64,000 nucleotides of DNA, from positions 33,862,304 to 33,926,303 of the forward strand of contig NC_092671.1 in assembly GCF_964355755.1 (NCBI RefSeq), read 5' to 3'. The stretch comes from Antedon mediterranea. Taxonomy: Eukaryota > Animalia > Echinodermata. The translations under genes and the position numbers were made by a program. Below, piece after piece: positions 958-52,300 of this stretch (position 1 is its first letter; each line of letters begins with the position of its first letter). The notes under the pieces were generated by a model. That model searched no databases and was not told where the DNA came from. It was given only the letters and a program-made list of their open reading frames with translations.

Positions 958-1402
958 TGTAATAAATTACCATTCCCTAACATATAGAGTAACATAGTAT
1001 TTACATGAACATTCTAGAATTAGATGTTTTGATTTAAGAAACCATGTATAATTAATAAGAACAATCAAGAACATTCCAGAAGTGCTATTAATAGAAACTG
1101 TAATCATGTAATAATGAGAAGTATAAAGAATGATCTAGAAGGATAGGAGCATCTTGTATATAAGGGATGTAAACTATTGTAAGGTTGATGGATTAGAGGT
1201 TGGATATCATATTGTAAAGTCATTGTGAAGCTGTTGTTTAAAGTGCTTACTGGATTGTTAAAAGTTGAAGTTGATTGAAATTAAAGCTTTGTTTTTGAGT
1301 TATTTTACAACTTTGTGGATTGTGTGTATACTTTTATGTCACAAGGAAGTTCCTAAAGTATTTTCAACCGCTCGGAAACATACGTGAGAGGAGTTCGTGA
1401 CA
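958..1402 (+). repeat. 5' LTR
   Basis: TGTAATAAATT...TTCGTGACA, a direct repeat of 2897-3341. Confidence 0.95.
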
Positions 1403-1407
1403 TAATT

Positions 1408-1420
1408 TGGTGGCAGCGGT
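1408..1420 (+). other. Primer-binding site complementary to the tRNA-Leu 3' end
   Basis: TGGTGGCAGCGGT lies 5 nt after the 5' LTR. It is the reverse complement of ...ACCGCTGCCA-CCA, the 3' end of eukaryotic tRNA-Leu(AAG/TAG). Confidence 0.8.
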
Positions 1421-1734
1421 TATTTCGATCTACTGTTCGACTTAACTGTGTATTTATCTACGGTTGTGATATTTTGTGGTAGCAGTTTGATCTACTGTAT
1501 TTTGCCATAGATTGGTGGCTGTTTTAGCATCAACTGTACTTTATTGATATTTTGTGAAAGCGGTACTTACGATACTGTGATATTTTACGGAAGCCGCGGT
1601 GCTACGTTTTGTTTAATCGTAAGTACACAAACATTGTTTTAAGAACACTACATTATTTATTTGGAACAGTAGACTTGTGAACGTCTCGGTAACTACGATT
1701 AACTAGTAACAAGACCCTCATCCAGATTTAAAAT

Positions 1735-2823
1735 ATGGCTGATAAACAATCAACAACAAGATCCGGTAGAGAATACAGCGGCGGCGATGAATCTGATTCT
1801 GAGGTAGAATCGGTTCAGTCATTACAACCTGAACAACAGGCAGAAGAGTCTGGACCAACCAGTGGACATAACCCTACAGGGGCTTACTCATCTTCAAAAA
1901 ATGTTTGGTTGTTGATGCAGCAGAACCTTATGATGCAGCAGCAAATGCAGCAAAAACTGCAACAGCAGAATCTTATGATGCGGCAGATGATAGAACATTT
2001 TTTTGAGAAACAGTTTCAAAATAGAAAACACGAAAATCGAAACAACCAGGAGAAAACAGTGAAAGGCACTCCTGAAGTTGACACTAGAGAGGAAAACGAA
2101 TTAAATTCGGAAAAAGGTTCTGTGGTTATTTCACGTCAGTTAGATGATGTGGTTAATTTTCAAGAAGAATTTGGACATTTAGATGGCCAACTACTCAGTG
2201 ACAACCCTCCCAAGGAAAAAGTTCATAAAACCAGAACTGAAAAACAAAAAGTTAGGAAAGAGTTTGCAAAAACAAAGGAAGCTCAATCTAGCCAATATAG
2301 TGAATTAGACATTTTAGATATTGGCAGAGATAAAATTAAGGATTATCAGGTTAAGGATAGAACTTTAATTTCACTTCGAGAACAGATGTTAGTACAGAAA
2401 GATGATGACACTATAAAGATAGTCTGTAAGGATGGAATCTTATTTAGGCAGGTTTTCACTAAACACCAGACAGAACCAATAGAGCAATTAGTAGTTCCAT
2501 ATCCTTGCCGTAATAGTGTATTGAAAGTCTCACATGATATTCCTTTGGCAGGTCATTTAGGTAGGGAAAAGACATTAGATAGGATAAAGCAAAAATTCTT
2601 TTGGCCTGGTATTAGAAAGGATGTGACTGAATATTGCAACACTTGTGAGATTTGTCAGAAAACTTCAAAGTATAAAACTAAATTGAAGGCCCAGTTGCCA
2701 ATAATTAGTGAACCATTCCGACAAATTGACATGAATATTGTTGGTTCATTATTAGTTTTCATTAATAATTATGTTGTATGTTATTATGGCGTATTTAAGT
2801 TTTATAGACTAGGAGTGGGTTAA
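1735..2823 (+). CDS. Remnant gag-pol fusion ORF: Gln-rich N-terminus, integrase H2C2 zinc-binding domain and start of the rve core; no protease, RT or RNase H
   Basis: Motif SHDIPLAGHLGREKTLDRIKQKFFWPGIRKDVTEYCNTCEICQK, then EPFRQIDMNIVG. The ORF lies between the PBS and the PPT. Confidence 0.85.
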   Translation: MADKQSTTRSGREYSGGDESDSEVESVQSLQPEQQAEESGPTSGHNPTGAYSSSKNVWLLMQQNLMMQQQMQQKLQQQNLMMRQMIEHFFEKQFQNRKHENRNNQEKTVKGTPEVDTREENELNSEKGSVVISRQLDDVVNFQEEFGHLDGQLLSDNPPKEKVHKTRTEKQKVRKEFAKTKEAQSSQYSELDILDIGRDKIKDYQVKDRTLISLREQMLVQKDDDTIKIVCKDGILFRQVFTKHQTEPIEQLVVPYPCRNSVLKVSHDIPLAGHLGREKTLDRIKQKFFWPGIRKDVTEYCNTCEICQKTSKYKTKLKAQLPIISEPFRQIDMNIVGSLLVFINNYVVCYYGVFKFYRLGVG

Positions 2824-2896
2824 ATTTTGCCACGTCCATGTATACTTGCCCCTCAAAACTCCAAGAAAGAGTTTTGAGCTCAGAAATAAGGGGGAG

Positions 2897-3341
2897 TGTA
2901 ATAAATTACCATTCCCTAACATATAGAGTAACATAGTATTTACATGAACATTCTAGAATTAGATGTTTTGATTTAAGAAACCATGTATAATTAATAAGAA
3001 CAATCAAGAACATTCCAGAAGTGCTATTAATAGAAACTGTAATCATGTAATAATGAGAAGTATAAAGAATGATCTAGAAGGATAGGAGCATCTTGTATAT
3101 AAGGGATGTAAACTATTGTAAGGTTGTTGGATTAGAGGTTGGATATCATATTGTAAAGTCATTGTGAAGCTGTTGTTTAAAGTGCTTACTGGATTGTTAA
3201 AAGTTGAAGTTGATTGAAATTAAAGCTTTGTTTTTGAGTTATTTTACAACTTTGTGGTTTGTGTGTATACTTTTATGTCACAAGGGAGTTCCTAAAGTAT
3301 TTTCAACCGCTCGGAAACATACGTGAGAGGAGTTCGTGACA
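2897..3341 (+). repeat. 3' LTR
   Basis: Direct repeat of 958-1402, preceded by the PPT. Confidence 0.95.
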
Positions 3342-3456
3342 CTTGTATACATTATGTATTAAATTGATATGCTATTATTAACTTTCTGTAGCTGCGATAT
3401 TATATTTTTTACTTCTCTTAATTACTAAGCTAATTGGTTGATGGAAATGTAGTTAT

Positions 3457-5165
3457 TTAACTATTTTTATTTGTAAATATACAGTAAAATAATTATTCTC
3501 TGTGAAAATTAATAATACTGTATAACAGAACAGTTTCTATTTTCAATTAACATTTAGCCTACTGTAAAAACACAATCAATTTCTCTTTAATTCTACACAT
3601 ATCCACTATTAATTTTAATTATTAAAATTAATTCCCTAACTGTTTGGAATTTACATTTTCGCTGTTTTCTACGGACAATGGAGATCTATCTAATTGTTTT
3701 CTGTTAGTTTACAGAGAATGTTTTACAGATTAGTTACGGCAATTAATTAATGTTTTGCTGTAAACCAGAACTTTCTGTTTTTTTTTACAGAATACCGTAA
3801 ATTAAATATATTTATAAATTTACAGTAGGCCTAAATCATTCTTTGTGAAACAAAAAATCTCTATTTTTAATTAACTATTTAAATTCATTTTTATTGAAAT
3901 AAATAATATTTTCTTGAAAAAAAAAAATTAAACTAACCATCATTTTTTTTTGACACATTGTTTCAATTAATTCATGGGAACATCGGGAAGAATATGTTTT
4001 CCCTCTTCATGATCATTCAAACGAAAATCTTCTAGAATCTTCTTCTATTGATTCGCGCGCGAATTGGAGGAAAGAGTCAAAGACAGGAAAGAGGAATCAC
4101 ATGGCTGGCTGATGCTGGAGATCTGAGTGATCATCTGACCCAGAAGGAGCTACTGTAATATAAGGTCGAACTAACAAGCTTTTTCATTTGAACTTTTGAA
4201 GGTTGATGAATGTGTAGGCCTACTTATTTGCATCTATATTCACTGCGTTGAGATTAGGTAGCCTAAAAACGGAAGGTCTAGGCCAATATAGGCCTGGCCC
4301 TAGGCTAGTGTAATTAGTATTAGGCATTTATGTAGGCCCTCTATAGCTAGACTTGATAACATATTAGTACTAACTATATTGCCTAGCTAATTGTTTGTCT
4401 AACCTAAGCTGAAATAAAAATACATAGGCCTAAACAAAATTGTAAAATAATGAAACATTATTCTTATTAAATAGCAATAATATAATAAGAAGTAAACAGT
4501 AAATAATCATATTACAGTATTGCAAATTGTATATAGAAAGTTGTATTACATTGTCGCCAAACCAATGCATTTATTTATTATACTAAACATTAAACAGGTA
4601 ATATTGCATATTGGATTTTTATTCTTCATTGCAATGCTTGCCTGTTCACTTTGTCACTATTCAACGTACTCAATCAAATCATATTCCAAGCATTATAGAA
4701 TTCATAGAAATGTACATAATTTCAACTTTCCCTGTGGTGTTCCAAACTGTTTTAAAACATTTTCTACTTACTCTGCATTTAACAGTCACATTAGTCGGAA
4801 TCATAAACAGTATCGAGTGGAAAATTCAGTGGTTATCTTCAGATATAGGCCTACCTATAAAATGCAATGTTGGTATATGTGAACAGTATTGTAGTGATAT
4901 GTCCTCTTTGATTAAACACATGAAAAACCACATTGATTTTGGCACTCGGGTAAGTTGTCCCTATAGTTCATGCACAAAATCATTTAATAATAAATTATCG
5001 TTCAAGTCTCATGTATCTCGATACCATAGCTCGACTTTTAACCTTATAGAAAACTCGTACACCAACCGGAACATCGATATATTCTCCACCTCACCCATTT
5101 CCTTTTTCTTCGTGATTTAAAAAAATAGTCCATCAAAAAAGTTATATATTTATATTTACATACCA
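3457..5165 (+). mobile_element. Internal fragment of a CACTA/EnSpm-like DNA transposon (duplicate of ~14092-15742)
   Basis: Nearly identical to 14092-15742. Contains TTTACAG/CTGTAA subterminal-type motifs and a C2H2 zinc-finger ORF. Confidence 0.7.
4634..5120 (+). pseudogene. Frameshifted tandem C2H2 zinc-finger ORF (4 fingers), transposon-borne
   Basis: Frame 1 reads MLACSLC...HYRIH and CGVPNC...HISRNH. After a frameshift near 4830 it reads CNVGIC...HMKNH and CPYSSC...HVSRYH. Confidence 0.7.
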
Positions 5166-5522
5166 TCTATAATAAACGCCCATCCACAATATTATATTTA
5201 TAACACAATTATTCTATTTTTAGTAGATTTCTTCGGACGGTTATCTACAATTTACCAAGCATTTGTTATTCTTTTTTACCACTTTTCATATCTACAATAA
5301 ACACTTATACGCCTAAAACGCTATTAATCATCTAAGACACTTAGGTTAGTGAGTACGTTTAGTTTTACGAATATCAAAAGCATTTAAATAATGGTAACCG
5401 ACCGAAATTTTCCAGGCCAGAATGTCCTTCTAAAACTGTTTACGTCCCGAGTCATTATCATTCCGAGAACCATCGTCTACACTTCCTAGAGGGGAAGCGA
5501 GCGAAGCGAGCTCACCCTCTAG
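5166..5522 (+). mobile_element. Short non-autonomous Helitron (copy 2)
   Basis: A|TCTATAATAAA start, GC-rich hairpin, CTAG|T end at 5519-5522. Confidence 0.72.
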
Positions 5523-6196
5523 TACACTATAATTACTCTATTAACAAATATTTTGTATACAATTAACACAATCAAATATTATTATTGTCAGTTCTTTTTG
5601 TGTGAAAATCAAATTACCAGTTTCATACAACGTGTGGTACCAGAAAAAAAATTATTATAAATATATATAATTATATATCTATAATAATAAGAAAACTATC
5701 ACAGCACATCAATATTGGTTATTGAATTGAATTTATCACTGATATGTCTGTTCGGGTCAAATTCAGAGTACCATTAATTATTAACTGCCATTGTCTTGTC
5801 AAATTGCTCTGGTATTGTAAAAGACAACGAAATAATCTGTCCAGCTTTATTTATGTTTATCTATTTTGTAATTTGAATCAATATTGTTTTGCGTGTTAAT
5901 TCACAGGCATAGAAAAAAACTCTACAGAGATTTAAATTAAAATTCTTTATTACAAGGTAAGCATTGTTGAATTGACATAAGTGATATGTACTAGATATTA
6001 TTAATTAACTGTTATACATTCAAATTAATAAAATAATAACAGGCTATATGTTATGTTAACAACAGTCTGTTATGAACTGCTTGTATACATTATGTATTAA
6101 ATTGATATGCTATTATTAACTTTCTGTAGCTGCGATATTATATTTTTTACTTCTCTTAATTACTAAGCTAATTGGTTGATGGAAATGTAGTTATTT
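5170..6196 (+). repeat. Local duplication of 37-957 plus 3347-3458, carrying the empty LTR insertion site
   Basis: Near-identical sequence with a single CTTGT at 6080-6084 where the first copy holds the LTR element. Confidence 0.9.
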
Positions 6197-6837
6197 TCCC
6201 TTATAGAGTGGTTATTAATGAACAGCTTTTAAAATTAGACAAGGGTCTACTTGTAGTGACATTAAACTAATTATAATAAAATGTAAACGGAGTTTTCTAT
6301 ATTCCACAATACCAAAATTTAAAAGAATTAAATGTATTATTATTTAAAGAAATATGCGACCAAATCGTTGTAGTAAATGTGATAATTGCAGAGAGAGGCT
6401 GGATGAGATGTTGCTACGACGAGAATAGAAATGTGACTAGGAATCTGAGTCGATGACTTATCTCCTTATGTTTCAATGAAAGCCTACTCTCCGAAATCAC
6501 CTAAAAATAAAATTGAAATACTAAGTTTAATACCGTACAATTCATACATTTTACTGAGGGGTTATTTCGATTCGATTCATATGCAGACCAGATAGGTAAA
6601 ATAAAAAATGAATCAGGTAAAAATGGCAAAATAAATTAACTGAGTTATTTATGTATATTGCTCTGCTCTGCGATCTCCTATTTTCCGTCTGCTTCTGGTT
6701 ATGGTTTAATTATATTTATCTACATAGACATAGGATCAACTGGCTTGTTACAAATTTCTCTTTAGGCAGAGAAAATGTATACAGCAGTTAAGAGCAGGAC
6801 TTTATTTGATACTGAACCATGTTGATGCTTCCCTTAA

Positions 6838-7854
6838 AATGGACCTGAAATGGAATTTCGATTTTCAAGAAATTCACACATGTTATTTAAATGTATCAAA
6901 TTAACACAAACCCATACAAATAAAAACAAAATGTATAGTATTTTGAGTAAAAACGAAATTTTAAGATACCATGGTAAATTAGCGAAAATTACTCACGCTA
7001 TTGCAATATTCTATTTTAACGGCCGTCGGAAGCCTCTATATTCACGACGTCACATATACACACGATGATATCGAGAGCGTGTATGCCGCCCGATAGTCAG
7101 TGAATGATCGACGGCCTGGAAAGATACGCAAAGCGTTGACACTAATACTAATGTTGTTGAAATATAGGTCCCTAAAATGTACTTCGTTTGTTCTAAAACC
7201 CGAATTTAGAAGGCCTACCTCCCAAACTTTTACTAGGCCTAGGCCCCCAATCCAGCACGCGGAGTCGATCCACCACCCACATCATGCGGCGAGGCTCCGT
7301 TAAAGCAATATCAACAACTTGCTTCGCTCATTGTCAAGCCAAAGTAAAATATGAATAAAATTCGTTTTCGAACTGCCTGATTCGTGACAAATAAATTATC
7401 ATCTCATATTACTAATTTAATTCTGCTAAACTAAAAACTAAAGAAACTAACACATTTTAGCAGTATAAATTACGAACGATATACAAAATACACGAACGGA
7501 AAATATGGATACGCATCATTGCGCACGGAGCTGTATCCCGGACAACGTTGCCAGGCTAACTTCGGTATTGCCAGAAAAAAACCGTTGATTTTAAGATTTT
7601 AAATCGTCATTTACTCGATGAATAACCGTTTATACGGTAATAATTTTATCTAAAAAAACTGCAAATTTTCCATTGGAGGGATAGGAATATATTCGCAAAG
7701 TGACGTCACCCGCGAATTTTTTTGATTTTCAAATGGGGCTTTCCCCAAAAGGGCCAATTTATATTTTGTAACAATATACATTCTAGCAACACCTAATAGC
7801 CCACAAAACATCATTCTAAAATGAAAAAAATCGAAAATCCATTTCAGGTCCATT
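6838..7854. mobile_element. Non-autonomous TIR DNA transposon with TTAA TSD (Kolobok-like)
   Basis: TTAA|AATGGACCTGAAATGGA ... TCCATTTCAGGTCCATT|TTAA. Confidence 0.85.
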
Positions 7855-7921
7855 TTAAGAACATGTGTAGAAGCTGATATATAAATTATAATAGTATATT
7901 ATTCTCATGACTTACTTTAGT

Positions 7922-10900
7922 TTATCTTCCCGTAGGAGGTCCTGAAACAAAATGGGAATGAACAATTATGAACTGGTGTTTTTTACACATTTAAAATCTC
8001 ACAAGTTCGATGACGGTATAGCAGTTGAATAGCTAATATAATTATACTCTACTGTAGGTCTACGATTATACATGCAAAATAATAACAATTTTAAAAATTA
8101 CAGGGTCTTTACACGATCTTTTCTCTCCATCAAGTTAAAACACAGTATATCGAATGGTACGCTTAAGACTTTGGAGTCTTTAAGAGTTTGGCTTAAGCTG
8201 TAAATGCAATCTACAAATGCAAATTCCAGGTACGATGTTTCTTATATTAATGGATGTAAAAGTCTTTTACGTGTTAAACGTACGGCGGGATCACTATTTT
8301 ACATTTTATACAGACATGATGGTCATTTTTGGTCAAGCAACATTTAAAATCCTGTAGCCTACATTAAGAAACATGAAGTAATTGGTAAATATCATAAAAT
8401 ATGCATTCATTGCTGGATTTAGGATGAGGGGGGGGGGGGTATGACGTATGTAGGTATCGTAAAAAACGCCGAGGCATTCGCGTAGGCCTTATAGTGAGTG
8501 GGTTTAACAACGCCTCTAGTTCACATGCAACATCATTAGTTCCGCAAGGCTTACGCAATACCATACCGTACGTGAACATACCCTATAATTGATAGAAAAT
8601 TAAAGCTAATGAACAATTTCTCATTCTTTATCCTTATGATTTCTAATATTGATACCATTAGTTTCAAAATATTGATTTTTTTAACAATGATGTATGCTAT
8701 TCGATTGGATGAATAATATTGTCTTCAATTAGGCCTATAACCAAAAATAATTGATTTATAAAATAATAGTAGGCATAAATAATATGAAATCTCGTTTGTC
8801 CGATTGATGCATTCTTCTCGTGCATGTGAACATATCATAGATGATAACAGAAAATTAAAGTAAATGGACAATTTGTCATTGTTTATCCTTATGATTCCTA
8901 ATTTTGATATCATTAGTTTCAAAATATTGATTTTTTGAACGATGATGTGTATAAGCTATTCGGTTGGATGAATCATATTTTTCTTCAATTTTAATCATAA
9001 ATAATTGTTTTATAAAATAATTATAATAGTAGGCATATATGCATGTATATTATTACTGTATCTGTGACTTACTTTGAGCAGCGTTTAATCCAGAAGGAGG
9101 TACTGAAAAAAAAAACAGACGTAACAATTATTGATATAGTTATGTTATATTAGCAAAAGTTAGGCTGATGTTTGAAATCTCGTTTGTGGGATAGATGACT
9201 TTCTTTAGTTACTCACTTTCTACTCGACGGATTCTATCCTGACCTGAAATGAAATGAAAATCAGTGTATCAAAACCCACATACAATGTTTTGACATATAA
9301 AAAGATGTTGATGCTGATTTAAACTTTTTTTCCCTAAAACATATAAAATTAAAATTATAAAAATCAGACTTTAAATAGGCCATTGTGTAGTTAAGTTAAT
9401 CATATCCAAAGAAAAACAACTGGAAAATGTAATTGTAAAAAGACAAAATATAGTTTAAATTCAACCCGAAACCCACTTACATTATATTGTATTCAACAAC
9501 AAAAAAATAAAAAATATTATATTGTTCTGTGGAACAATATTTCTTCAATTTTATATCATTTGTATTTAAAGCAGAAGAAAACAATAAGAACTTTTAATTG
9601 TATATTTATTTCAACACATGTAAGTTCGAAATATCTATATCAAGTACTCACCTTCATCTCGACGGACTCTTTTATGATCTGAAACACATTATTTTAAAAA
9701 AATAATAACTGGTTGTATCAGAAGCGCATATGAATTAATGGAAACAAGTTACTTTCAAATCGAAGCTATTGTGATTGTTTGGGGATGGATGAAGGTGATG
9801 AGGTAGGTTATTTGTTGCTCCGGTAAAATTATACTTGGAGTTTAGTTCTATATAATTTATGTTGAATAAGAAGGGTATATTGTAGTTAACATAGGGTCTT
9901 AGTGATACATGTTTTAGGCCAACTGGTAGCTGAGACTCTAATATTTGGTCGGTCCTATTCTTTGCCTTTTTTTGTATTACATTAATGACTACATTACTTT
10001 GAAAATAAAAGAATTAGATATCACATGATTTGCATAGTATTGATATTTCTGACATAGCTTCAACGGAAATGTAGGCAATTACAAATAGGCTTTTATTGCC
10101 AATGTTTGATTATTAAAAAAACGTAGGTCACACATATCATGTACATATTTTAGTATTTAGGCTTATTATCTTTTAAATTGAATTCAACGTGAAATTATCG
10201 AAAATACATGAACATTTGGTAATATGAATGTACCGGTATGCATTGTAACTTACTTTCACCGTTTAATCCACTAGGGGGTGCTGAAACAAAGATCAGACAA
10301 AAATCATGAACACTTTAAAATATTATTCTTTTGAGTATCGAATTACTTTGGAGTGTTATGATGGGGGCTTTACGTTATATATTGACTAATATTGTCTCCA
10401 TCACAGTGAGATTGTTGGAAATGTTTACTTTTGTTAGACAAAGTATAGTGTTTATGGCTGTGACGTCGTCTTTCTCTCAAATTTCAGGCCTATCAATTAT
10501 TAAAAACTGTGTACATGTTTTTGTAACTTACCTCCAGCGTTTAATCCATGAGGAGGTCCTGAAACAAAGAAAAAAAATATGATTGTTTAAATTGAGTAGA
10601 AAAACTTGACCGAAAACCATATTTTAACAACGTATCAGGAATATAAATATAATTTCAGAACAATCGCGAGATTGACGATATCGCCGCGCAGCCATCCACG
10701 TAAGTTGCTGTGACGTCACAAGTAAATGGCAAAATCTGCCTCATGAATTTTCACTGTTGTTAACATACAAGAGAAAGGTACCGTCACTTCAATTGCTAAT
10801 TTCAATTGCCTAAATTTGCCAAAATGTTTAGTCTGGTATTTTGAAGAAACACTTCAATATCCAGATTAGGCAAATGTAACAACAAAAACATTCAACATTT

Positions 10901-12085
10901 ATATTTTTTTACGATTTATTTAAAAAGTGTGTTTACTAGAAATGTTTGCGCTTTGCGAGACAATAAATCGAACTTTTTAATGTACGTGTGCAGGCGCGGG
11001 CAATTGCTGTTTGCCGCAAGTACATCTTTACAAATCGATTAAATTGGAAAAATATATAATGAAAAACTTGAAAGTATTATGTTGGTCCTATACTTTGATG
11101 CTTTGATGGAGTGAGGTATGACTGTATTCTATTTTGTATCACACGTGACTTTAACACAATATCGTGACTCTTTATATATGGCTCTATAACTTGCGGTGAC
11201 GCGCGGACAAAACGGGCAGGTGATTTAATCGTGGACCTATATCTATATACATATGATGTTTTCACAAAACAATAGAAAACGATAGCAATTCAATTGGATA
11301 AACACACCTTTTAAGTTTTGATTATCCAATAGCTTAAGTTATTTATTTTTAATAGTGGTGTTAAAACACCACTATGGTTTTTCTTGGAACTTATCTAACC
11401 CGTAAGAAATGTCACGTAATACGAAAACCAACGATTAAAATAACAAGGATATACGTGTTATAAAATAAACTTGTTAATATAGTAGTTTCAGTATTGTATT
11501 TTCTTGTTTGTCATTATTAATTTATGTTCTACAAATTAAAAACTTCTATCGTTGAATAATATACATTTAAGCATATATAGTACATGATAAAACAATGACT
11601 TACTTCCCATTGCCGAGTCAGCATGAAACAAAAATACTATAACAAATATAACTACCAACGATTGCATGCTGTAAAATAACATGTATAGTGTTAAACATTG
11701 TCAAAAAAAAAAGATATGGAATGAATTGAATATGCAAAATGTATGTAAAATAAACAATAATGCATTGCAAAATCAAATTTAGCTTTCCAATGTTGCGAAA
11801 AGGGATTTTCTTCTGGGAGGCTAAGCTGTCAGGGTATAGGCCTAATTGTACTGTCTCGTTGAACAATAAAAACTCTCGCTTCAGATTTAGAAAAGCATTC
11901 AAATAATTTTAAAGTCTTACACTAAAAAAAAACCAAGAAATTAAACATTAAAAACTGTTGGAAATCTCCTTAGATTAGTGTGATACAATACATGAATGTA
12001 TACAACGTGAGTTGAAAGAAATTATATTTTTTTGGAAAATTTAATATTTTCAACATTATAATAACAATAACACTAACAATAATAC

Positions 12086-12127
<42 letters not shown>

Positions 12128-12250
12128 GCTTTATTTAATCACGGATACTTAACTCAACTGAAAGTTATTTTTCAGAAAGACCTTAAAATCAGTTAGACCC
12201 CTTTACCGAATCAGTGATCATAAGCCTAACACTTACATTTTACTTGACAT
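7922..12250 (-). CDS. Microexon-encoded small secreted peptide precursor, 78 aa: MSSKIMQSLVVIFVIVFLFHADSAMG-RPPHGLNAG-APPSGLNGE-NHKRVRRDE-GQDRIRRVE-IPPSGLNAAQ-RPPTGR*
   Basis: Exons: 12250-12237, 11668-11604, 10558-10532, 10280-10254, 9678-9652, 9243-9217, 9102-9073, 7941-7916 (TAA at 7924-7922). The six microexons have TTTCAG acceptors (exon 2 TTTTACAG) and all exons have GTAAGT/GTGAGT donors. Phases are compatible. The product has a hydrophobic signal peptide, RVRR and RIRR sites and a terminal GR. Confidence 0.8.
8593..9035. repeat. Diverged ~250-bp tandem duplication in an intron of the microexon gene
   Basis: AGAAAATTAAAG...CATTAGTTTCAAAATATTGATTTTTT...AATAGTAGGCAT occurs at ~8593 and again at ~8849. 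Confidence 0.7.
10601..11000 (+). mobile_element. Diverged relative of the TTAA MITE at 16151-16494
   Basis: Shares AACTTGACCGA, TTTCAGAACAATCGCGA, GACGTCACAAGT, GGTACC and TTTACGATTTATTTAAAAAGTGTGTTTACTA. Confidence 0.6.
12087..12126. repeat. (AAT)n microsatellite
   Basis: Trinucleotide run. Confidence 0.9.
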
Positions 12251-12287
12251 GGTGATACAATAACGCCAACTCGAAGAGTAAGAATGA

Positions 12288-12395
12288 TTTATATCAAATG
12301 AACTAACGCATCAAATAGTCTGAATACTAAATGCTAAATGAAAGGAAGGATGAAGAAGATTGTTATATTAGGACAGTTTGAATGTATATGATTGG
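12288..12395 (-). promoter_or_regulatory. Candidate core promoter of the microexon gene (TATAAA plus CCAAT)
   Basis: Minus-strand TATAAA at 12293-12288, ~40 nt upstream of CACCATG (ATG 12250-12248). CCAAT at 12395-12391. Confidence 0.4.
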
Positions 12396-13428
12396 TCAAT
12401 TACTTTACACTAGATTGGAAGGGACGCGAGTTAGAGGCAAACAATGGGATGGGTCACTGTAGGTGTCAATGTTGACACTGCCCTTCCAGTTTAGGTGTGG
12501 ATTGGCTAAAATTCCAGTGCTCACCTAGTGATTCCCACGCTCACACGAAATACAGAAACTATGGTTATAGCAACTATTTCCATGAAAAAAACAAGACTGG
12601 GTCGTGATAGAAGGTTATAGAGAACAGGATACCTGGAAAAATCATCTATAGCATTATAAATCTATGAATTATAGTTTGTATGAACAATCGTATTATGATT
12701 TTCATCATGATATTCTTGACATACCGCGCTATAGAAATATATAAAACAATACCTTACATCGATATATTATTGATGTTTACATCATCAGTGCAACCTTTCA
12801 GTTTGATTGGAACAAACATAATGTCCATTGTTTGTAAGTGTCACATCCAGTTGTGTGAACTCTCTATCACCGTATGTACGTGGGCCCGGCCGATAATACT
12901 CTGAGCCAATTGAAACAGGCTCACATTGAAAAGTTGAAAGCATCTACATTGACGCGACAGTCTACTGGACACAGTTGATGAACAGTAGTTTACTACTGAA
13001 CAGGCTCACCAGAATAGAGAATAAATAAAAAAATAAAATAATATTAATATAACCGTAGACGCAGAGTTATTATTCGTATAGTTATTGGACCACATATTTA
13101 TTTTTAAGTTATATTACCACATGGCACTGCTATATTTACCCGATTTTTTAGTGCTGTATCTCCTCCTACTATAATATATCGAGTGTAATATGAATATTTG
13201 GCAGCATCTCATTTGTATCACATGCCTGTAAGCATGTAAGTGTTATATACATGAAACAAATGTGATGTTGAATTACCATTATTCATATTACTGAAAAAAC
13301 CTAGACTTCAGTACCGATAATTAATTAAAGTGGGTGCTTTATTTATGATTTATTATACATTTCGGAATATTGTTTCGTATACATAATTATGGATTGGCTT
13401 GTTTAACATAACCCAAGGTGCTTATCTA

Positions 13429-15742
13429 CACTGTAAAACAAATCTGTAATTTTACAGATAATATTCTACATTTTTTGTTTGTTATTTATTTTTACAGCAT
13501 AATTTTGTTAAAAAATACATTTTTGCAGTGAAATTCTCTGTTATATTACGAAATTCCGTAAACTTACTACATATCTCTGTAAATTGACGGGAAAAAATAA
13601 TTTAACAACATAACTGTTGGAATTTTAAATTCATACTGTATTTTTACTGAATGTTTTAGGTAATTAATCTGTAATTTTACAGAGAATATTTTACAGATAC
13701 AGTTTACAAACTAATTATGCTAAAAATACATTTTTACTGTAAAGGTCTGTGTTATTTTACAGAAGACCATAAATTAACTACACATTTGTATATATATTTA
13801 CAAAATTTACAAAAAAATAATTATTCTCTTTGAAAATAAATAATATAAAATTACAGAACAAAATATCTATTTACAATTAACATTTATTTTACTGCCAAAA
13901 TACAATCAAATTCTCTTTTAATTCTACACATTTTCACTGTTTTATTACAGACAATGAAGATATCTAATCTAAATCTGTAATTTGACAAAAATACAGAGAA
14001 TGTTTTACAGATTCATTACGGCATAGGCCTAATGTGTTTTAAAAATATATGTTTGAAAGTGTTCTGTTATTTTACGGACCGTAGGCTGAAATTAACTATT
14101 TTTATTTGTAAATATACAGTAAAATAATTATTCTCTGTGAAAATTAAAAATAGGCCTACTGTATAACAGAACAGTTTCTATTTTCAATTAACATTTAGCC
14201 TACTGTAAAAACACAATCAGTTTTTCTTTAATTCTACACATATCCACTATTAATTTTAATTATTAAAATTAATTCCCTAACTGTTTGGAATTTACATTTT
14301 CGCTGTTTTATACGGACAATGGAGATCTATCTAATTGTTTTCTGTTAGTTTACAGAGAATGTTTTACAGATTAGTTACGGCAATTAATTAATGTTTTGCT
14401 GTAAACCAGAACTTTCTGTTTTTTTTTACAGAATACCGTAAATTAAATATAATTATAAATTTACAGTAGGCCTAAATCATTCATTTTTAATTAACTATTT
14501 AAATTCATTTTTATTGAAATAAATAATATTTTCTTGAAAAAAAAAATTAAACTAACCATCATTTTTTTTTGACACATTGTTTCAATTAATTCATGGGAAT
14601 ATCGGGAAGAATACGTTTTCCCTGTTCATGATCATTCAAACGAAAATCTTCTAGAATCTTCTTCTATTGATTCGAGCACGAATTGGAGGAAAGAGTCAAA
14701 GACAGGAAAGAGGAATCGCATGGCTGGCTGATTCTGGAGATCTGAGTGATCATCTGACCCAGAAGGAGCTACTGTAATATAAGGTCGAACTAACAAGCTT
14801 TTTCATTTGAACTTTTTAAGGTTGGTGAATGTGTAGGCCTACTTATTTGCATCTATATTCACTGCGTTGAGATTAGGTAGCCTAAAAACGAAAGGCCTAG
14901 GCCTATATAGGCCTGGCCCTAGGCTAGTGTAATTAGTATTAGGCATTTATGTAGGCCCTCTATAGCTAGACTTGATAACATATTAGTACTAACTATATTG
15001 GCTAGCTAATTGTTTGTTTAACCTAAGCTGAAATAAAAATACATAGGCCTAAATAAAATTGTAAAATAATGAAACAATATTCTTATTAAATAGCAATAAT
15101 ATAATAAGAAGTAAACAGTAAATAATCATATTACAGTATTGCAAATTGTATATAGAAAGTTGTATTACATTGTCGCCAAACCAATGCATTTATTTATTAT
15201 ACTAAACACTATTCAACGTACTCAATCAAATCATATTCCATGCATTATAGAATTCATAGAAATGTACATAATTTCAACTTTCCCTGTGGTGTTCCAAACT
15301 GTTTTAAAACATTTTCTACTTACTCTGCATTTAACAGTCACATTAGTCGGAATCATAAACAGTATCGAGTGGAAAATTCAGTGGTTATCTTCAGATATAG
15401 GCCTACCTATAAAATGCAATGTTGGTATATGTGAACAGTATTGTAGTGATATGTCCTCTTTGATTAAACACATGAAAACCACATTGATTTTGGCACTCGG
15501 GTAAGTTGTCCCTATAGTTCATGCACAAAATCATTTAATAATAAATTATCGTTCAAGTCTCATGTATCTCGATACCATAGCTCGACTTTTAACCTTATAG
15601 AAAACTCGTACACCAACCGGAACATCGATATATTCTCCACCTCACCCATTTCCTTTTTCTAGAAACAAACCTTTAGTTTGTGTCTTCGTTATTTAAAAAA
15701 ATAGTCCATCAAAAAAGTTATATATTTATATTTACATACCAT
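13429..15742 (+). mobile_element. CACTA/EnSpm-like DNA transposon, left end with subterminal repeats and a disrupted C2H2 ORF
   Basis: Starts CACTGTAAAA, followed by many direct and inverted TTTTACAG/CTGTAA motifs over ~1 kb. A zinc-finger ORF remnant at ~15200-15620 carries a deletion. The right end was not found. Confidence 0.7.
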
Positions 15743-16150
15743 GTATGATTTTCTTCATGGTCAGGAAAGCGACTTATACGTACCACACTATATGTAGAAC
15801 TAACATATCTAAATTAATTCGTCTCCTTTTCCATCCGTGCTTTCAATGAAAAAATACTGTTGAATCACCTTGTAGTTTATTTTGTATAGTGTATCTTTAT
15901 TAAAATTCTTTACTTGTTTATCTTTATTTGTATTTATATTTATTTTGTATGTCATTGCATTTTTATGTGAGCGTTTGTGCCTGTCAAGAATTTCCAAAAA
16001 ACACCAACTAAATCTAAATCTAAATCTGATTTGGATTTAATTATGTTACTTATGTAAATTCCGTTTTTAATGTTATCAAACAGAAACGAGATATTATCCA
16101 TTTTTTTTTAATGGTTCTAATAATGTTGAATATTCTGCACAGTTTGTTAA

Positions 16151-21621: not shown

Positions 21622-23761
21622 TTATTTTTCAAAACAAGCATCATCACTGTCATAATCATCACTCTCCTCGTCACTTTTATTATATTCATTTTTATCTTGT
21701 TCTTCTTCTGATGGAGTTGAACTTTCTTCATCATTAGATTCGTCATCAGATTCGATTTCATCATCACTTGATTTTTTCGATTCAATTTCTGATTCAATTT
21801 CTGATTCACTTTCCTCTAAGAAATTATATTCAAGATATATAAATAGGATTTATCAGTATCAGAATGTAATTTTACCGATTATCGGTACTGTATCTACACG
21901 ATGCCCAGTACATGCATCACATGTAATTCACGAGTATTTCCTAGTTGGCCTATCGTAATAACGTAAACAAATCCTTAACATCATTGCGTTATACAAATGC
22001 GATGCAGTCATAGGCCTATTATTATTATTCCTATGATACTGGGCAAATGTTGTATTATTTGGAGATAAAGCGATAGGAATCGGCTGATTTAAACATATAG
22101 ATATGTTATAAATAATAAAACAGACTATTCAAATATAAAAAAAGTGTATTATATCATACAGTAGTTAATTGAAGTAAATACTAATGTTTAAAACCGCTTT
22201 GTCATATTATATTGCATGGATTAAATTCAATAGTACTCTATATGTCATGAATTAATTACCATTTTCCATGTTGCCTGACTCCACGTGACTTTCATCTTCT
22301 ATGACTGCAATTCAAAAACATTTTAAAACAAAATATTATTATAACACACCTGAATGTATTAGTGATTGTGTTTGCGTGCCGTTTGGTTATTAGTTCTACC
22401 TTTCGGAAAAATTATATATAATTACGATAATTAATGGTTATATTGCATGTTCAACTTTCCGTAAACATTTTGAAAACACTGTCGGCCTACTACTAACCCG
22501 TGTCCGAAATTGAACCGCCGCTTCCTTTCTAATTAGCCAAGCTTCCGGCCTATCCTTTCACAATGCTTCAATGTAAGCAGCGGATTATTTTAATAAAAGT
22601 TTACTTTAGGACAGTAAGTGTGTTATAACACAAATTATTATTTGAATTCGTTGGAATGGAGAGAATATTTCATTTGTTGAAAGATTTAACTTCTCTCCGT
22701 CTCGTTAAATAGAGCTGTCAATCTTTCAACTCATGAAATATTTTGTTACCTTCTAAGTCATAAAAATGTATTATTTGTTATTATGACTGTGAACAAAATT
22801 ACAGTGTTTACATCTACATAATGGAACAAAAAACAGAGTATGCTGAAGATAAATGATGCTACAGTTTGTACTGTTATGTCGGTCATCTTGTGATTACAAG
22901 TACAAAATGTTTACACATCTCTGGCTTGTTACTTAGCATGTACACCGGGTTAATCCGTATTCATAACCAACCCACATTATAAATCGTTTTGATAAAACAG
23001 CGCCATCACAGTACTTGCAGTTATGTTTCATTGATATATGGGCACATTTTTAACGAAGGGCCTATTCACACAACGAATAGTTATCACTTTAAAAAACAAA
23101 CTTCATGCTATTTTACCTTTGTCTAACTCAGTAACCGATTGTCCTTGTTCTTCAAAAAACTCAGTGTTACTTTCATTATCTGTTCAAATGAATAAAAACA
23201 AATTAAAAAACTGGTCATTTTACTAATGTACCGTATTACATTTCCCATAACACGGAACTGTATACAAACGGTTAAACACAGATAGTAAACAACTAAACAC
23301 AAAAATCATACAGAACAAAAATGTTGCAATATTTTGTTAAAGTATTTACAAATAAGCCTTCAGAACAATACAATTTCGATTCCGAAAAATACAAATTAAT
23401 TATAAGGACTTTGTGAAATTTCTTACTTGGTTTGTTGGTTGGTGGAGTAGGAAGTTTAATATTTTAAATACGCAAATTACAACATACTAACCTGTTCCAA
23501 TATCTATGCCTATTGATGATTCACTACCCTGTAAAGTAAACAAAAAAAATAATTAAATCCCCCATTTATACTACGTGTGTTATTGATGATTACATGCTTC
23601 TATTAACTCCCAGATTCTCTGACCACCCTGCTTCTATATCATCTACCTGCTTCTATTATCTCCCTGCTTCTCATCACCCTAAAATAAAAACTTACAAGTT
23701 TGGTATCAGACGGTGAAGACCGAGTTAACATTTTTCGATTTATTCGTCTAACCTCACGCAT
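21622..23761 (-). CDS. Adhesion GPCR cytoplasmic tail exons (Ser/Asp/Glu-rich)
   Basis: MREVRRINRKMLTRSSPSDTKL / GSESSIGIDIGT / DNESNTEFFEEQGQSVTELDK / VIEDESHVESGNMEN / EESESEIESEIESKKSSDDE...DDACFEK*. Confidence 0.65.
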
Positions 23762-35700: not shown

Positions 35701-36243
35701 CACCAAACTACATAATATAAATGTATAGACCTCTATTGTAAAGGAATACGTTTTACAGTAAAAAGTTTTAGGTAATTGTAATTTTTTGTAATACGTAAAG
35801 TCGTTTCAATAATTTGGTCATTCTTAACATTTCCTAAACCTATTGTTTTTTTAATGAAATCATTTTAAAAATGCAATTTTTAACGTCGGATTTAATTTGA
35901 AATGTCATATTCAAGAGAATGAATTGAAAAAGTTACCTAATACAGTAATTTTGAATGAAAACTCATTGGCGTTTTTGAATATATCGTACGCCCAATACGT
36001 CACAGTTGTATTTCCGATGTGAAATGTGGTCTGTGGTTGATGAGTAGAATTGATAAACACTTCTTCCATAGAATTATCAAAGACAGTCGGAAGAGTCCAA
36101 TTTAAAGTGGCAAAAGGTTGATTCGGGTCCGTCACGACCAAAATGTCTTCAGGTTGACTGGAGAACGATGGAATTTCTTCATCTAAGAAATAAATAAACT
36201 TAAATATTATATATATAACCAACTAAGAATAGATACTGTAATT

Positions 36244-36296
<53 letters not shown>

Positions 36297-37241
36297 CAAT
36301 GAAGTTGCGTAGCACTGTGTAAATTATATATAAATCATACTGTAAATTATAGAAACAGTGCTCATATTCGGAACATGATCTCATAATCGCGTCGAGCATA
36401 GCTCATTGGCGAAAGTTCCGTATTTTTTAGTTGTATGGAAAAATGTCTCTGGCGGGATTAGAGATCATGTTCCGAATATGAGCACTGTTTCTATAATTTA
36501 CAGTATGATTTATATATAATTTACACAGTGCTACGCAACTTCATTGATTTACATATACACAATGTTATTTAAAAAACCGTTGCGAATTAAAGTTGGAATT
36601 TATTCTGACTTGTTAAGCCTCCACTGATTGTGAGGGCGTTTGTTGTATGAGAGAATGTATCTGGTGGGTGAAAACCTGTGATAATACCATACATGGCACT
36701 GTGGTCTAGTGGTATGATACTCGCCCTGTAAGCGAGAGGTTGCAGGTTCGAATCCCGCCAGAGACATTTTTCCATACAACTAAAAAATACGGAACTTTCG
36801 CCAATGAGCTATGCTCGACGCGATTATGAGATCATGTTCCGAATATGAGCACTGTTTCTATAATTTACAGTATGATTTATATATAATTTACACAGTGCTA
36901 CGCAACTTCATTGATTTACATATACACAATGTTATTTAAAAAACCGTTGCGAATTAAAGTTGGAATTTATTCTGACTTGTTAAGCCTCCACTGATTGTGA
37001 GGGCGTTTGTTGTATGAGAGAATGTATCTGGTGGGTGAAAACCTGTGATAATACCATACATGGCTCTGTGGTCTAGTGGTATGATACTCGCCCTGTAAGC
37101 GAGAGGTTGCAGGTTCGAATCCCGCCAGAGACATTTTTCCATACAACTAAAAAATACGGAACTTTCGCCAATGAGCTATGCTCGACGCGATTATGAGATC
37201 ATGTTCCGAATATGAGCACTGTTTCTATAATTTACAGTATG

Positions 37242-37302
<61 letters not shown>

Positions 37303-40300
37303 TAAGCAGAATGTGTATGTATTTGTCTGGTTTATATATAGTAATTGAATAAATACTTTTTGAAAATTATAGTATTTTAGCCTTATTTTTGTGTTTGTTT
37401 TTATCTATGAGGTATCCTTTGATGTAATCTTTTAGAGAAGCAATCGTTTCTGATGTCTTAAGTAGAAACTACTGAAACTTCTGTCACTACAGATCTAAAA
37501 ACCCAGCAAATACATTGCCTAATATTATACATTTCATGAGATGTATTCACATAACATGTAGGCCTACTACAGTATATCGTGCATTTAATGTACAGCGTGG
37601 ATTTAAATATGCACATAAAGTACACCAAACATTTTGAAATTAACGTACATCATTCATTTACAGTCATGCATTGCAGTATAGTATATCATGCAATAACATT
37701 ATCATGCATTGCAGTACAGTATAACATGCATTTACAGAATCATCAGTACAGTATATCTTGCATTTGCAGTATCATACATTACAGTACAGTATATCTTGCA
37801 TTTACAGTATCATGCATTACAGTACAGTATATCATGCATTACAGTACAGTCTTGCATTTACAGTATATCATGCATTACAGTGCAGTATATCTAACATTTA
37901 CAGTATATCATGCATTTACAGTATCATACATTACAGTACAGTATACCTGTCACAAGTGACATAAGTTTTGTATTTATTTTGCAAGTCATTCTTACTTTTC
38001 CTTTTGTTTTCATTATTTAAACCTTTCTTTTGTTTTAGGAAACTATTGTTTGAAGCCAGTGGAGCAGAGTGTTTGTGTGAAGAGAAGGAGTGTGTGGAGG
38101 TTGCTGATTGGAGGAGAGGTTTAAGAGTTGAGTTGGTGTGTGAGTTGCTGATTGGTTGAGAAGGATAAGGTGGTGGTATGTGTGCAATTGAGGGAAGGTT
38201 GAGAGGGAGATGGACATTGAGAGGAGACAGAGAAGGAGGGCTATGTTAGGTTATGATAAGCCAGAAAGGAAATAAAGTGATATACATGAAGTTAATAAAT
38301 TGTGCGTTGGAAATGGTTATGCTGAAATAGAGCTGAAGCAGAAAGGAAATAAAGTGATATACATGAAGTTAATAAATTGTGCGTTGGAAATAGTTATGGT
38401 GATATAGAGCTGAAGCAGAAAGGAAATAAAGGGATATACATGAAGTTAATAAATTGTGAGTTGGAAATAATTATGGTGATACAGAGCTGAAGCAGAAAAT
38501 AGAGCTGAAGCAGGAAGGAAATAAAGTTATATACATGAAGTTAATAAATTGTGCGTTGGAAATATTTATGGTGATATAGAGCTGAAGCAGAAAGGAAATA
38601 AAGTGATATACATGAAGTTAATAACTTGTGAGTTGGAAGTAATACTATAAGGCAGTGCAGAAAGACATCAAGAAACATTTTAACTTTATAGGCCTATTTC
38701 ATTTATTTATATGTCAGAAAATAGTTGCAGTTTGAGAAGAATTATAATTGGGAATACAAGCAGAACGGGAGCAGAGGCGTGGGAGTTGTTTAGTTGCAGA
38801 ATCGTTTTAACTGTTATCTTTCTAATTTGTTTATGTGTCAGCGTAGGAGAAAAGGCCAGAAGGAACGATATTGTGGACATTGATTATTGTTTAATTATTC
38901 ATCTTGTGATATTATTGTATTTGGAAGGGGGGTCTCTGGGATTTATTTGACAATAAGACGATGATGTTGATATTTTGTCTGGAAGGATTGGGAATTTGGG
39001 AAAGTGTATAAATTGTGTGGGGAATAGGGATACTGTATCATTGTTTGAGAATTGGTTGGTTTTTTTTTGTGGTTTTTTTTTTGGGGGGTTTGGATTATAA
39101 AAGGAAGAATTGTTTGTCAAAGATTATTAAATTTACTTTTTACATTTATATGTGTACAGTTGTGGCTATTTACCGTTGTTTACCGGTGGTTACCAGATAT
39201 TACATGCATGCATACCATGCATTTACAGTATATCATGCATTACAGTACAGTATATCTTACATTTACAGTATATCATGCATTTACAGTATCATGCATTACA
39301 GTACAGTATATCATGCATTTACAGTATCATACATTACAGTACAGTATATCTTGCATTTACAGTATCATACATTACAGTACAGTATATCTTGCATTTACAG
39401 TATATCATGTATTTACAGTATCATGCATTACAGTACAGTATATCATGCATTTACAGTATCATACATTACAGTACAGTATATCATGCATTTACAGTATCAT
39501 ACATTACAGTACAGTATATCTTGCATTTACAGTATACCTTGCATTTACAGTATATCATGCATTACAGTGCAGTATACCTTGCATTTACAGTATATCACGC
39601 ATTTAAAGTACTAGATGGTACGCTCGCTTTGCTCGCGTACCATCTAGGTCGTGCCCCACAGATGGTTCTCGAATACATAATAATTTCAGCGCTAAAAAAC
39701 TGGCGATTTCAAATGTACGTACCCCAGGACAATAATACATGTCGTTTAGGCCTACAAGAACATATAAATATACACTGTGATTTATGTACTCAACTAAAAT
39801 TAGCACCCTGGGAATTACTTCCGAAAGAGAAAAATTGTTTAAGTCAAATTTAAACAAACTTAATTTGTAACATAGGGTTGAGGGATGGGGAAAAGGATGG
39901 GTGCAAAAAGGAACAAATCAAAAATTCGATTTAATCGTCAATAAATATTAAATTATCTAACTCAAGTTAATTAGTAGGCCTAATGGTTTTAAATTGTTTC
40001 TTAGAGCCAATTCATACTTAAGTTGGTTCCTACCCTACCCACCAAAGTTGTTCTGCGTTTAGGGCATGCGGTGCACCGTAGGCCTATCCTCTACTACTGG
40101 CTTTACAACGCTACTCATGCAAGTAAGGGAAGGGTGATGATGTGGGTGGTTTAACTGTAATAATTAAGATTTGTACATAATATAGGGCGACTGAAAACGC
40201 TAGCTCATTATCCGTTAAAAAAAAAATCTATATCCAACCTTTTTTGAAAAAAAAAATTGATCGAATATCTGTTATGAGTATACAATACAGTACTTGCCTT

Positions 40301-49300: not shown

Positions 49301-52300
49301 ATTTTTACTTCTTTTTTTATAGTATCAATTATAGTAGGCCTTTACAGAATTTCGCAATAAAATATAACCCAAATAAACTAATGCATGAGAAGTTGGATAC
49401 TGGAAAAACATAAAACATAATTCTTATTATAATAGTCACGTGCAAACCCCATGGTTTACCTAGAATATCAAAAGGTACTTACATAACTGACATGTTTTAA
49501 ACAGCAACAAGATCTGTGTAATAAATAAATAAATGATTATTACATTCTAAATTGATCTGAATCCATGTTTGTATTGTACTTTTACTGAGGTTTAAATTAT
49601 ATTTTGTAATATTTATTTTTAATCGTTTATACGAATTTTGCATTAATTTCACTTTATTTAGCAATTTCAAACCATTAAAATTTAGCATTTGATAAGTACA
49701 CTATAATCTTATAATGCAATATATATCATTGTACAATTATTATACCAAATCTCAATTTGTAATACTAAATGTAAATCTTTATACCGTTGTAGGTTCCGTA
49801 ATATAAATTTTCTCTGACTACTTAATTGTGTTATATTTAGATTTTAACACAATATCAACATATTTTGTACAATATAATCTATTAACCTATTGACCACAGA
49901 CTGCTGTGTAATATCATTTATATGTCTATTGTTCATCATACATTGTCAACTAAACTATATCATAGGTCAACATGGATCTATCAATAGGGAGGTTTTGCAA
50001 TCTTACGAATACGATAACGACAACGGATACGTCACGCACAGGTATTCGTTTTTCGTAATCCAGTAAAAATCTGTTTCGCATGGCAACAAAATATTGAGGG
50101 CGCCGTCCAAAATATGACTGCGGTAAATTTGAGCGAAGTGCAGATACGTGTTGCTTGGTGCTTGGCTGCCTAGGCCTAGCGTAACATCAAAGCGAGTGAA
50201 GACTTTAAAAACTGCTATTTATCAAAATTGACCTGGCATTTTAGTAAATTACTTTAGTAAATTACTTTCTTTTTTTTTTTTTTTTTTCAATAACTTTTAT
50301 TTTCTCCTTTTATCAAAAACATTACACTCAACAGAACGTAACAAAACGGAAAACCAAAGACGTTTGAGGACGTCGCATTATCTCAATCGTCATTCTCTTT
50401 TTTCATTATCTCTTTCAATGTTTGATATACTGTACCACAAATACCTCATCATAATCATTTCTTAAGTTAAACCAGGCTATAATAACCCCTTGTCAATAAT
50501 GATTACCAAGTTTTGCATTTTCAACTCTTATTCCTTAATTTAGTTTACAATACGTTTTTGATATGGACATTATACTTATTTCAATTTTTTGCAATATTAT
50601 TCTCCACAGTTTCAGAAAAGAAGAAAGAAAATCAAAGACGAGTGAGGACGTCACATTATAATATTTGATTAAATCACTATACCTCATCATAATCATTTCT
50701 TAATTTAAACCAGGCTATTATAACATATTAACAATAATAGTTACAAAGTTTTGCATTATCTACTCCTATACCTTGATTTGGTTTACAAAGTCAAATTCTT
50801 TTTCCCATAACCATAATTCACCAAAACAATATAAGAGAAATAAATTGTCAAATTTTACTAATGCGTTACAATGAATTATTTCAGTTGCTTATGGGTGTAT
50901 TTCATTCAATTGTCGTTATCTCTTTCTAATACTGGTTCCTATTTTTTAATATGGACATTATATTTATTTTTAATTTTTGCGATATTATTCTCCACAGTTT
51001 CTGTAAAGAGTACCCATCTTTTAAAGTGAATGAAGTTAAGAATAATTTCATTTATCTTGCATTTATATATATATCTCTTAGCAAGAAGTAAAATCATATT
51101 AACAAAAGTTGAATATTTATATTTTTAAAAAAATACCAAAACATATGTCTATATTATTTAATCTAATAGTGATGTCTAATTTCCTGAACCAATAAAACAC
51201 ATCATCCCACAATTTAGAAGTTTTCTCGCCAGATCGTATTAGAAATTCTACTGTTTTTTGTTTTTTTTTTTCCTTACCACAAATAGAACATTTATCATCT
51301 TGAACCAGGCCAATTCTGTGCAGTAACTTATTTGTGAAAAGAATTATATGTATAAATCTGAACTGCAGGAATCGTGTTTTAGTGTCAGGATTACATTCGT
51401 AAGGCATCCTATAAATTAAACTCCAATCAACATTAAAAAGATCAGAAAAGGAAAAGAAGAAGAAAGAAAATCAAAGACGTGTGAGGACGTCACATTATAA
51501 TATTTGATTAAATCACCATACCTCATCATAATCATTTCTTAATTTAAACCAGGCTATTATAACATATTAACAATAATAGTTACAAAGTTTTGCATTATCA
51601 ACTCCTATACCTTGATTTGGCTTACAAAGTCAAATTCTTTCTCCCATATACATAATTCACCAAAACAATATAAGAGAAATAAATTGTCAAATTTACTAAG
51701 GCGTTACAATGAATTATTTCATTTGCTTATGGGTGTATTTCATTCAATTGTCGTTATCTCTTTCTAATAATGGTTCCCATTTTTTAATATGGACATTATA
51801 TTTATTTTTATTTTTTGCGATATTATTCTCCACAGTTTCTGTAAAGAGTACCCATCTTTTAAAGTGAATGAAGTTAAGAGGAATTTCATTGATCTTGCAT
51901 TTATATATATATCTCTTAGCAAGAAGTAAAATCATATTAACAAAAGTTGAATATTTATATTCAAAAATACCAAAACATATGTCTATATAATTTAATCTAA
52001 TAGTGATGTCTAATTTCCTGAACCAATAAAACACATCATCCCACAATTTAGAAGTTTTCTCGCAAGACCACATTAGATGCATTACTGATTCTTTTTCCTT
52101 ACTACAAAGAGAACATTTATTATCTTGAATCAGGCCAATTTTGTGCAATAACTCATTTGTAGGAAGAATTCTATGTATAAATCTGAATTGCAGGTACTGT
52201 GTTTTGGTATCAAGAGTACATTCATAAGGCATCCTATAAATTAAATTCCAATTAACCTTAACAAGATTAGGCTCTTGGTTAAATTCATTACTCCATTTTC

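Follow-up and report, generated by a model that had tools for sequence, protein, structure and literature searches.

We believe, with confidence a little better than even, that the window (the whole 64,000-nucleotide stretch of DNA that was analysed) contains a feather star gene that is spliced from micro-exons. Its 73–78-residue product carries a signal peptide and is likely processed at two RxRR sites to give short, proline-rich peptides for signalling or recognition, whose variety is likely due mostly to in-frame differences between alleles along with some exon skipping. The best reading of the product is a fast-evolving secreted propeptide, made by a gene with the build of a micro-exon gene (MEG) outside the flatworms. 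The gene is real and apparently undescribed; in a literature search we found no account of it or of any crinoid micro-exon gene.

Five sequencing runs match the stretch, and we analysed four of them. Run X1 is probably RNA (it carries no record as RNA, but it has joints at exon ends) and was available as contigs only. Runs X2, X4 and X5 are DNA runs, all from one sample (S2), and cover the introns as DNA would.

Exon layout and the two micro-exon classes

A consensus splice-site scan of both strands found six micro-exons on the minus strand, each at its predicted position. When these are joined to a signal exon, the result is a single open frame of 73 codons from seven GT-AG exons, and it starts with a hydrophobic leader of 21 residues, continues with two PPxGLN modules, one RVRR and one RIRR module and a third PPxGLN module, and has a short tail that closes in Gly-Arg-stop. 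The signal-peptide exon (11604–11668, minus strand like all exons of the gene, 65 nt) has its ATG at 11667, ends in phase 1 and is covered by X1 contigs; the signal peptide call rests on hydropathy, which peaks at 3.9 at the hydrophobic N-terminus. Two class-1 PPxGLN micro-exons of 27 nt and phase 1-1 come next, at 10532–10558 (named by no X1 joint) and 10254–10280 (X1 depth 0 in its bin), both called from motif and splice sites. They are followed by two class-2 micro-exons, also 27 nt and phase 1-1: one at 9652–9678 with KR and RVRR basic sites, called from its motif and X1 joints, and one at 9217–9243 with the RIRR site, called from its motif and four X1 contigs. The third PPxGLN micro-exon (9073–9102, class 1) is 30 nt long; two X1 contigs retain it and one skips it, and in both X1 variants it is longer. 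The last coding exon (7916–7941, 26 nt) ends in Gly-Arg-stop, a predicted amidation signal, and is followed by a donor; X1 joints support it.

Micro-exons shorter than 36 nt make up 158 of the 222 coding nucleotides (71%, or 67% when the probable first exon is counted as coding). As had been proposed, the five internal micro-exons are all multiples of 3 and all phase 1-1, so any can be skipped in frame, and every one of the 32 subsets of them stays open. All six acceptors are TTTCAG, the donors are GTAAGT or GTGAGT, and the introns of this seven-exon chain run from 114 to 1131 nt, every one GT-AG.

Upstream, we place a probable first exon of about 52 nt at 12237–12288. It is inferred only from the X1 depth sum and a GTAAGT donor at 12236, with no joint displayed; the X1 bin 12175–12425 has a depth of 11.3, which equals a depth of 54.5 over 52 letters and fits an exon at about 12288–12237. 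The reading frame is open from there into 11668, and translation from an in-frame ATG at 12250 would lengthen the signal peptide by five residues, among them a lysine. At the other end, a 3' non-coding exon (5851–6500) starts at 6500, as given by X1 joints 6488–7915 and 6489–7917 and by X1 cover at 6035–6444; its end is not fixed, with AATAAA at both 5951 and 5851. The span first given for the cassette, 7916–10558, does hold the six micro-exons, but it omits the signal exon, the 3' exon from 6500 and the probable first exon.

The two classes of micro-exon named in the original prediction are borne out, with PPxGLN copies at exactly 10558, 10280 and 9102 and a derived form at 7941, and the two cleavage-site copies at 9678 and 9243 related to each other. 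The class-1 motif has 3 matches where 0.03 would be expected, and the class-2 motif plus donor has 2 where the expectation is 0.00, figures that are upper bounds on the surprise because the motifs were drawn from the exons themselves. Similarity was significant for all seven within-class pairs (reached by only 0–4 of 2000 shuffles) and for none of the eight cross-class pairs (reached by 544–1859 of 2000). We had considered that one class might derive from the other, and with this lack of cross-class similarity we reject it. Donors are class-specific as well, GTAAGT in class 1 and GTGAGT in class 2. Judged by its letters, the last coding exon at 7941 is a diverged class-1 copy. No further copies of either class were found within the 64-kb window.

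The similarity between exon copies takes in each exon with its splice sites and tapers off within about 15–20 letters of the intron, and the gene would have grown by tandem copying of single phase-1 cassettes together with their splice sites. Self-comparison also found tandemly duplicated intron pieces with 255-nt spacing at 8572–9040. The pieces at 8594–8693 and 8849–8948 are 90% identical, and a second pair lies at 9205–9173 and 8816–8785. The duplications had been noted beforehand and are real, though two of the positions given for them were off by one (they should be 8594 and 8786). In the second intron copy, the sequences that flank exon 9102 on either side are fused and the exon itself is missing, so a cassette was probably copied and then lost; this copy is probably a trace of cassette gain and loss.

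A splice matrix built from 17 of 25 neighbouring introns gave 161 candidates, among which 10558 ranks 2, 9102 ranks 25 and three others lower, with 9243 below the threshold. Such a matrix is too weak to single out the micro-exons. Rfam gave 0 matches on 5200–13500, and a scan for bacterial promoters, which is not relevant to animal DNA, gave 1 match, at chance level. The window is AT-rich, with a GC content of 28–39%.

The peptide gene is flanked by two direct copies, about 95% alike, of a 1.6-kb element with remnants of C2H2 zinc fingers (3457–5173 and 14092–15749), and these could permit deletion or duplication of the whole gene. There is also a duplicate of the gene's distal 3' end (37–957 plus 3342–3458 against 5170–6196, 98.6–100%). 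This copy resembles a tandem duplicate that has been truncated and lacks the body of the gene, and it is split by a young, short LTR element at 958–3341 (445-nt LTRs, 99.3% identical) that has one 363-residue frame with an integrase zinc-binding domain and is apparently non-autonomous. High-copy small repeats lie within the introns of the peptide gene at 6833–7907 and 10600–10960, and 33-nt inverted ends (6833–6865 and 7827–7859, 97%) bound a MITE-like element of about 1 kb in the last intron. Farther along, the minus strand at 21625–49252 has a gene for an adhesion-type GPCR, with a C-type lectin domain, a secretin-family 7TM domain and many exons of HYR type. It matches Antedon mediterranea protein P0001 in 26 stretches at 83–100% identity (lower-identity cross-matches were filtered), which places the animal in Antedon or very near that genus; its first nine placed introns are all phase 1, and one of its introns has palindromic and tandem 430-nt repeats (36202–37346). 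An open 1150-residue frame on the minus strand at 51744–55196 is, by eye, like a LINE endonuclease-reverse transcriptase, and short tandem copies of its 3' end lie at 50441–52270.

Transcripts, skipping and alleles

The X1 contigs, at depths of 22–63, connect the ends of exons, and several of the unique intron bins show no coverage (depth 0). Eight of the 12 listed joints involve exons of the peptide gene, and the other four are in repeats at a depth of 10.4 or less. Five of the seven coding exons are carried by X1; 10558 and 10280 have no contig coverage at 80% likeness, and this is no proof that they are skipped. Downstream of the signal exon, four of the seven introns are supported (9652/9243, 9217/9102, 9073/7941 and 7916/6500). 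Joints 9241–9650 and 9678–11604 both have a depth of 45.3. The second of these, which links the signal exon to 9678, and a further joint that links it to 9242 leave the letters in between unplaced. If the signal exon were spliced straight to 9242 the frame would be lost, which makes it probable that such letters do lie there.

One in-frame skip is present in X1. A contig of depth 22.3 joins exon 9243 directly to 7941, beside a contig of depth 63.1 that keeps exon 9102. The sums of contig depths reproduce three bins within 0.1 (the signal exon, 44.41 against 44.4 observed; exon 9243, 36.75 from four contigs against 36.7; and a third bin, 28.54 against 28.5) and confirm a fork directly after exon 9243. 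They fit only if about 24 letters of the last intron are part of the skip contig as well. The skip contig shares with variant A (below) a private base at position 9217, whereas variant B gave no sign of a skip. This contig represents either variant A in an alternative or incompletely spliced form or a third allele.

The expectation that the exons are spliced at the predicted sites and in more than one form held in X1. The idea that splicing switches both the repeat number and the convertase sites is partly supported: the one skip drops exon 9102, but loss of the second cleavage exon was not seen, and this RIRR exon (9243) is kept in all three X1 contigs that reach the 3' half. The remaining differences among the contigs reflect variation in sequence and not a choice of splicing. 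Most modules are 27 nt as supposed, but the 30-nt exon at 9102 means that the isoforms would not make a pure 27-nt ladder. The skip is one fork against 32 possible in-frame forms; contigs lose rare forms, so the single skip limits the claim of combinatorial splicing without refuting it.

X1 holds at least two variants, and both diverge by 5–8% from the window in the 3' exon (11/206, 12/206 and 17/200 letters). Variant A retains 9678, 9243 and 9102 and has 39 extra letters ahead of 7941. In variant B, exon 9102 has 12 more letters at its 5' end and 3 more internally and joins 7941 directly; this variant was not placed on 9678. All three length changes in X1 coding exons (+39, +12 and +3) are multiples of 3, which would happen by chance about 1 time in 27. 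The only listed change in the signal exon (11635) is synonymous from a reading of the codon.

The 39-letter insert is absent from the window. It is self-complementary at 30 of 34 positions, its fold has an energy of −15.2 kcal/mol (1 of 2000 shuffles was as low), and it is bordered by a direct repeat, 8 letters long, of the end of the exon. We considered whether the 39 letters could be a separate exon; in the gene region they do not match the introns (score 21, shuffled median 24), and the palindrome and flanking direct repeat favour insertion inside exon 9102. Elements of the hAT group make an 8-letter target duplication. The hairpin and its repeat suggest that exon 9102 bears a footprint of transposon type.

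In DNA sample S2, a second haplotype lacks a stretch of 1553 nt (6442–7994), with a joint at 6441–7995 and 5 letters of microhomology. The deletion removes the stop exon and the 3' acceptor. The joint is seen in two of the three DNA runs (X2 and X4), all from one sample, and across the fork the depth in X4 falls from 287 to 150, with a short side of only 25 letters; the deletion is likely heterozygous. Since this is likely a null haplotype, the peptide gene may be dispensable. Taken with the two X1 variants, the deletion haplotype amounts to structural variation at the level of alleles. All three S2 DNA runs share a further joint (11695–12231), so that most of the probable first intron (11696–12230) is different in the second haplotype.

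Predicted product and alternative explanations

Furin-type convertases cut at R-X-K/R-R, and a glycine followed by a basic residue is an amidation signal. The feather star frame has the sequence features of a neuropeptide or peptide-hormone precursor: a signal peptide, convertase sites and a C-terminal glycine. The protein is predicted to be secreted and then cut by a furin-type convertase at the RxRR sites. The N-terminal product would be a peptide that bears two PPxGLN repeats, followed by a short spacer, and the C-terminal product is predicted to be amidated after trimming of Gly-Arg. Skipping of exon 9102 would leave a C-terminal peptide of about 6 residues with the amidated end retained, and the predicted range runs from there to about 29 residues in variant A. 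Different animals likely make different peptide sets. The distinctive feature of the gene is that the cleavage sites form a cassette class of their own; this is present in the sequence, and its use as a switch is putative.

We weighed this reading against three others. The original idea is a programmed combinatorial cassette, in which splicing freely mixes peptide and cleavage-site exons so that each allele yields many peptides and processing can be switched; we consider this doubtful. That all 32 subsets stay in frame fits it, although exon symmetry arises automatically from tandem copying of exons. The skip has about a quarter of the depth of variant A (22.3 against 63.1) and the two 5' joints could be more skips, but there is only a single clear fork, the RIRR exon stays in all three contigs of the 3' half, and at the 5' joints unplaced letters probably lie in between, as a direct join to 9242 would break the frame. 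Schistosome MEGs of like build show up to seven skip variants, according to the accessible text of PMC4015677.

It is also conceivable, though we think it quite unlikely, that each allele has one functional form, with the skip as leakiness after the hairpin insertion by the donor of exon 9102 and the variants as noise that is tolerated under weak constraint. The hairpin with its direct repeat does sit beside that donor, the skip carries the base of variant A at 9217 with none seen for variant B, the skip contig reads about 24 letters into the last intron by depth sums, and the deletion haplotype lacks the stop exon. On the other hand, the intron background (depth 2.3–3.8) lies some six to ten times below the depth of the skip contig (22.3), the three indels all preserve the frame, and contigs cannot exclude skipping in variant B. 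We regard as very unlikely an uncut small secreted protein of a matrix, mucus or adhesive, with a casein-like gene build and the RxRR exons as basic patches. The low-complexity Pro/Gly repeats would suit such a protein, as would the lack of a match to any checked crinoid neuropeptide precursor, and 27-nt exons of camel alpha-s2 casein are used differently within and between species in the available part of PMC6437144. Against it, two RxRR sites plus a Gly-Arg end, all within about 50 mature residues, agree with a processed precursor by the usual processing rules, and there are no clusters of cysteine or phosphoserine. We keep the secreted propeptide with mostly allelic variety as our reading.

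A broader proposal, which we put forward tentatively and think unlikely as a whole, is that a free-living deuterostome independently evolved a MEG-like gene with processing sites and repeats as separate splice cassettes, where splicing and alleles would together set peptide length and cut sites and so give individual-specific signatures for recognition or defence.

Comparison with known systems

We found no protein match, among proteins of 29–95 or 96–2000 residues, to the 54-residue genomic frame around the signal exon, which is weak evidence as it covers the signal-exon frame only. A pattern scan of metagenomes gave 0 matches. The peptide motifs were not found in print by a literature search whose reach did not include figures and bioRxiv supplements, and a term search of the accessible supplements of PMC9793003 and PMC6586643 found no motif shared with known crinoid or sea cucumber precursors. 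Genes of this kind may escape annotation; this one is absent from the protein collection (by the signal-exon query) and from the accessible part of the crinoid neuropeptide survey.

In build, the feather star gene has what defines the crinoid precursors PCNP1–20 in the accessible text of PMC9793003, with a signal peptide, basic cleavage sites and a C-terminal glycine. In sequence it is unlike them: none bears PPxGLN, RVRR, RIRR or PPTG in the PCNP list or by term search of the supplements as available (PMC9793003).

The honey bee apidaecin gene is another repeated-exon precursor in which exon number and sequence vary between haplotypes and for which splice variation has been proposed, at least in the part of PMC1847501 available. 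Each apidaecin exon is a complete 28-residue unit, whereas the feather star gene has 9–10-residue repeats and cleavage sites in separate classes, and its predicted peptides are not strongly cationic. The exons of casein genes are phase 0, whereas those of the feather star gene are phase 1; casein is also a larger phosphoprotein, and we saw no sequence likeness. Mammalian alpha-s2 casein (CSN1S2) is alike in its many short duplicated exons, including 27-nt ones, in skipping and cryptic-site extensions, and in species-specific exon sets, as described in the accessible portion of PMC6437144.

The closest likeness in gene build is to the MEGs of Schistosoma, which in the available parts of PMC4671649, PMC4015677 and PMC4350168 have a signal peptide in a longer 5' exon, coding mostly by symmetric exons shorter than 36 nt, a small product, and skipping. 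In the feather star gene we likewise found coding mostly by micro-exons, symmetry, a signal peptide in a longer 5' exon and a long 3' flanking exon (6500 to at least 6035). MEGs have many isoforms; here we have one skip fork in one set of contigs, possibly a third allele or leakage. The feather star also differs as a free-living echinoderm, in having dedicated convertase-site exons and a predicted amidated end, and in a stop codon that lies in a micro-exon. No sequence likeness to schistosome MEG families was found with the signal-exon frame as the only query, a weak test. Given the crinoid host and this result, we do not count the gene as a member of the schistosome MEG protein families.

MEGs "appear to be restricted to platyhelminths" in the accessible text of PMC4350168, and those that encode small secreted proteins have been described as peculiar to flatworms, where they are linked to the evasion of hosts. 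The presence of this build in a feather star suggests that it can arise independently through tandem copying of phase-1 cassettes. Whether programmed splicing or allelic churn makes the variety is a question common to MEGs, apidaecin and caseins.
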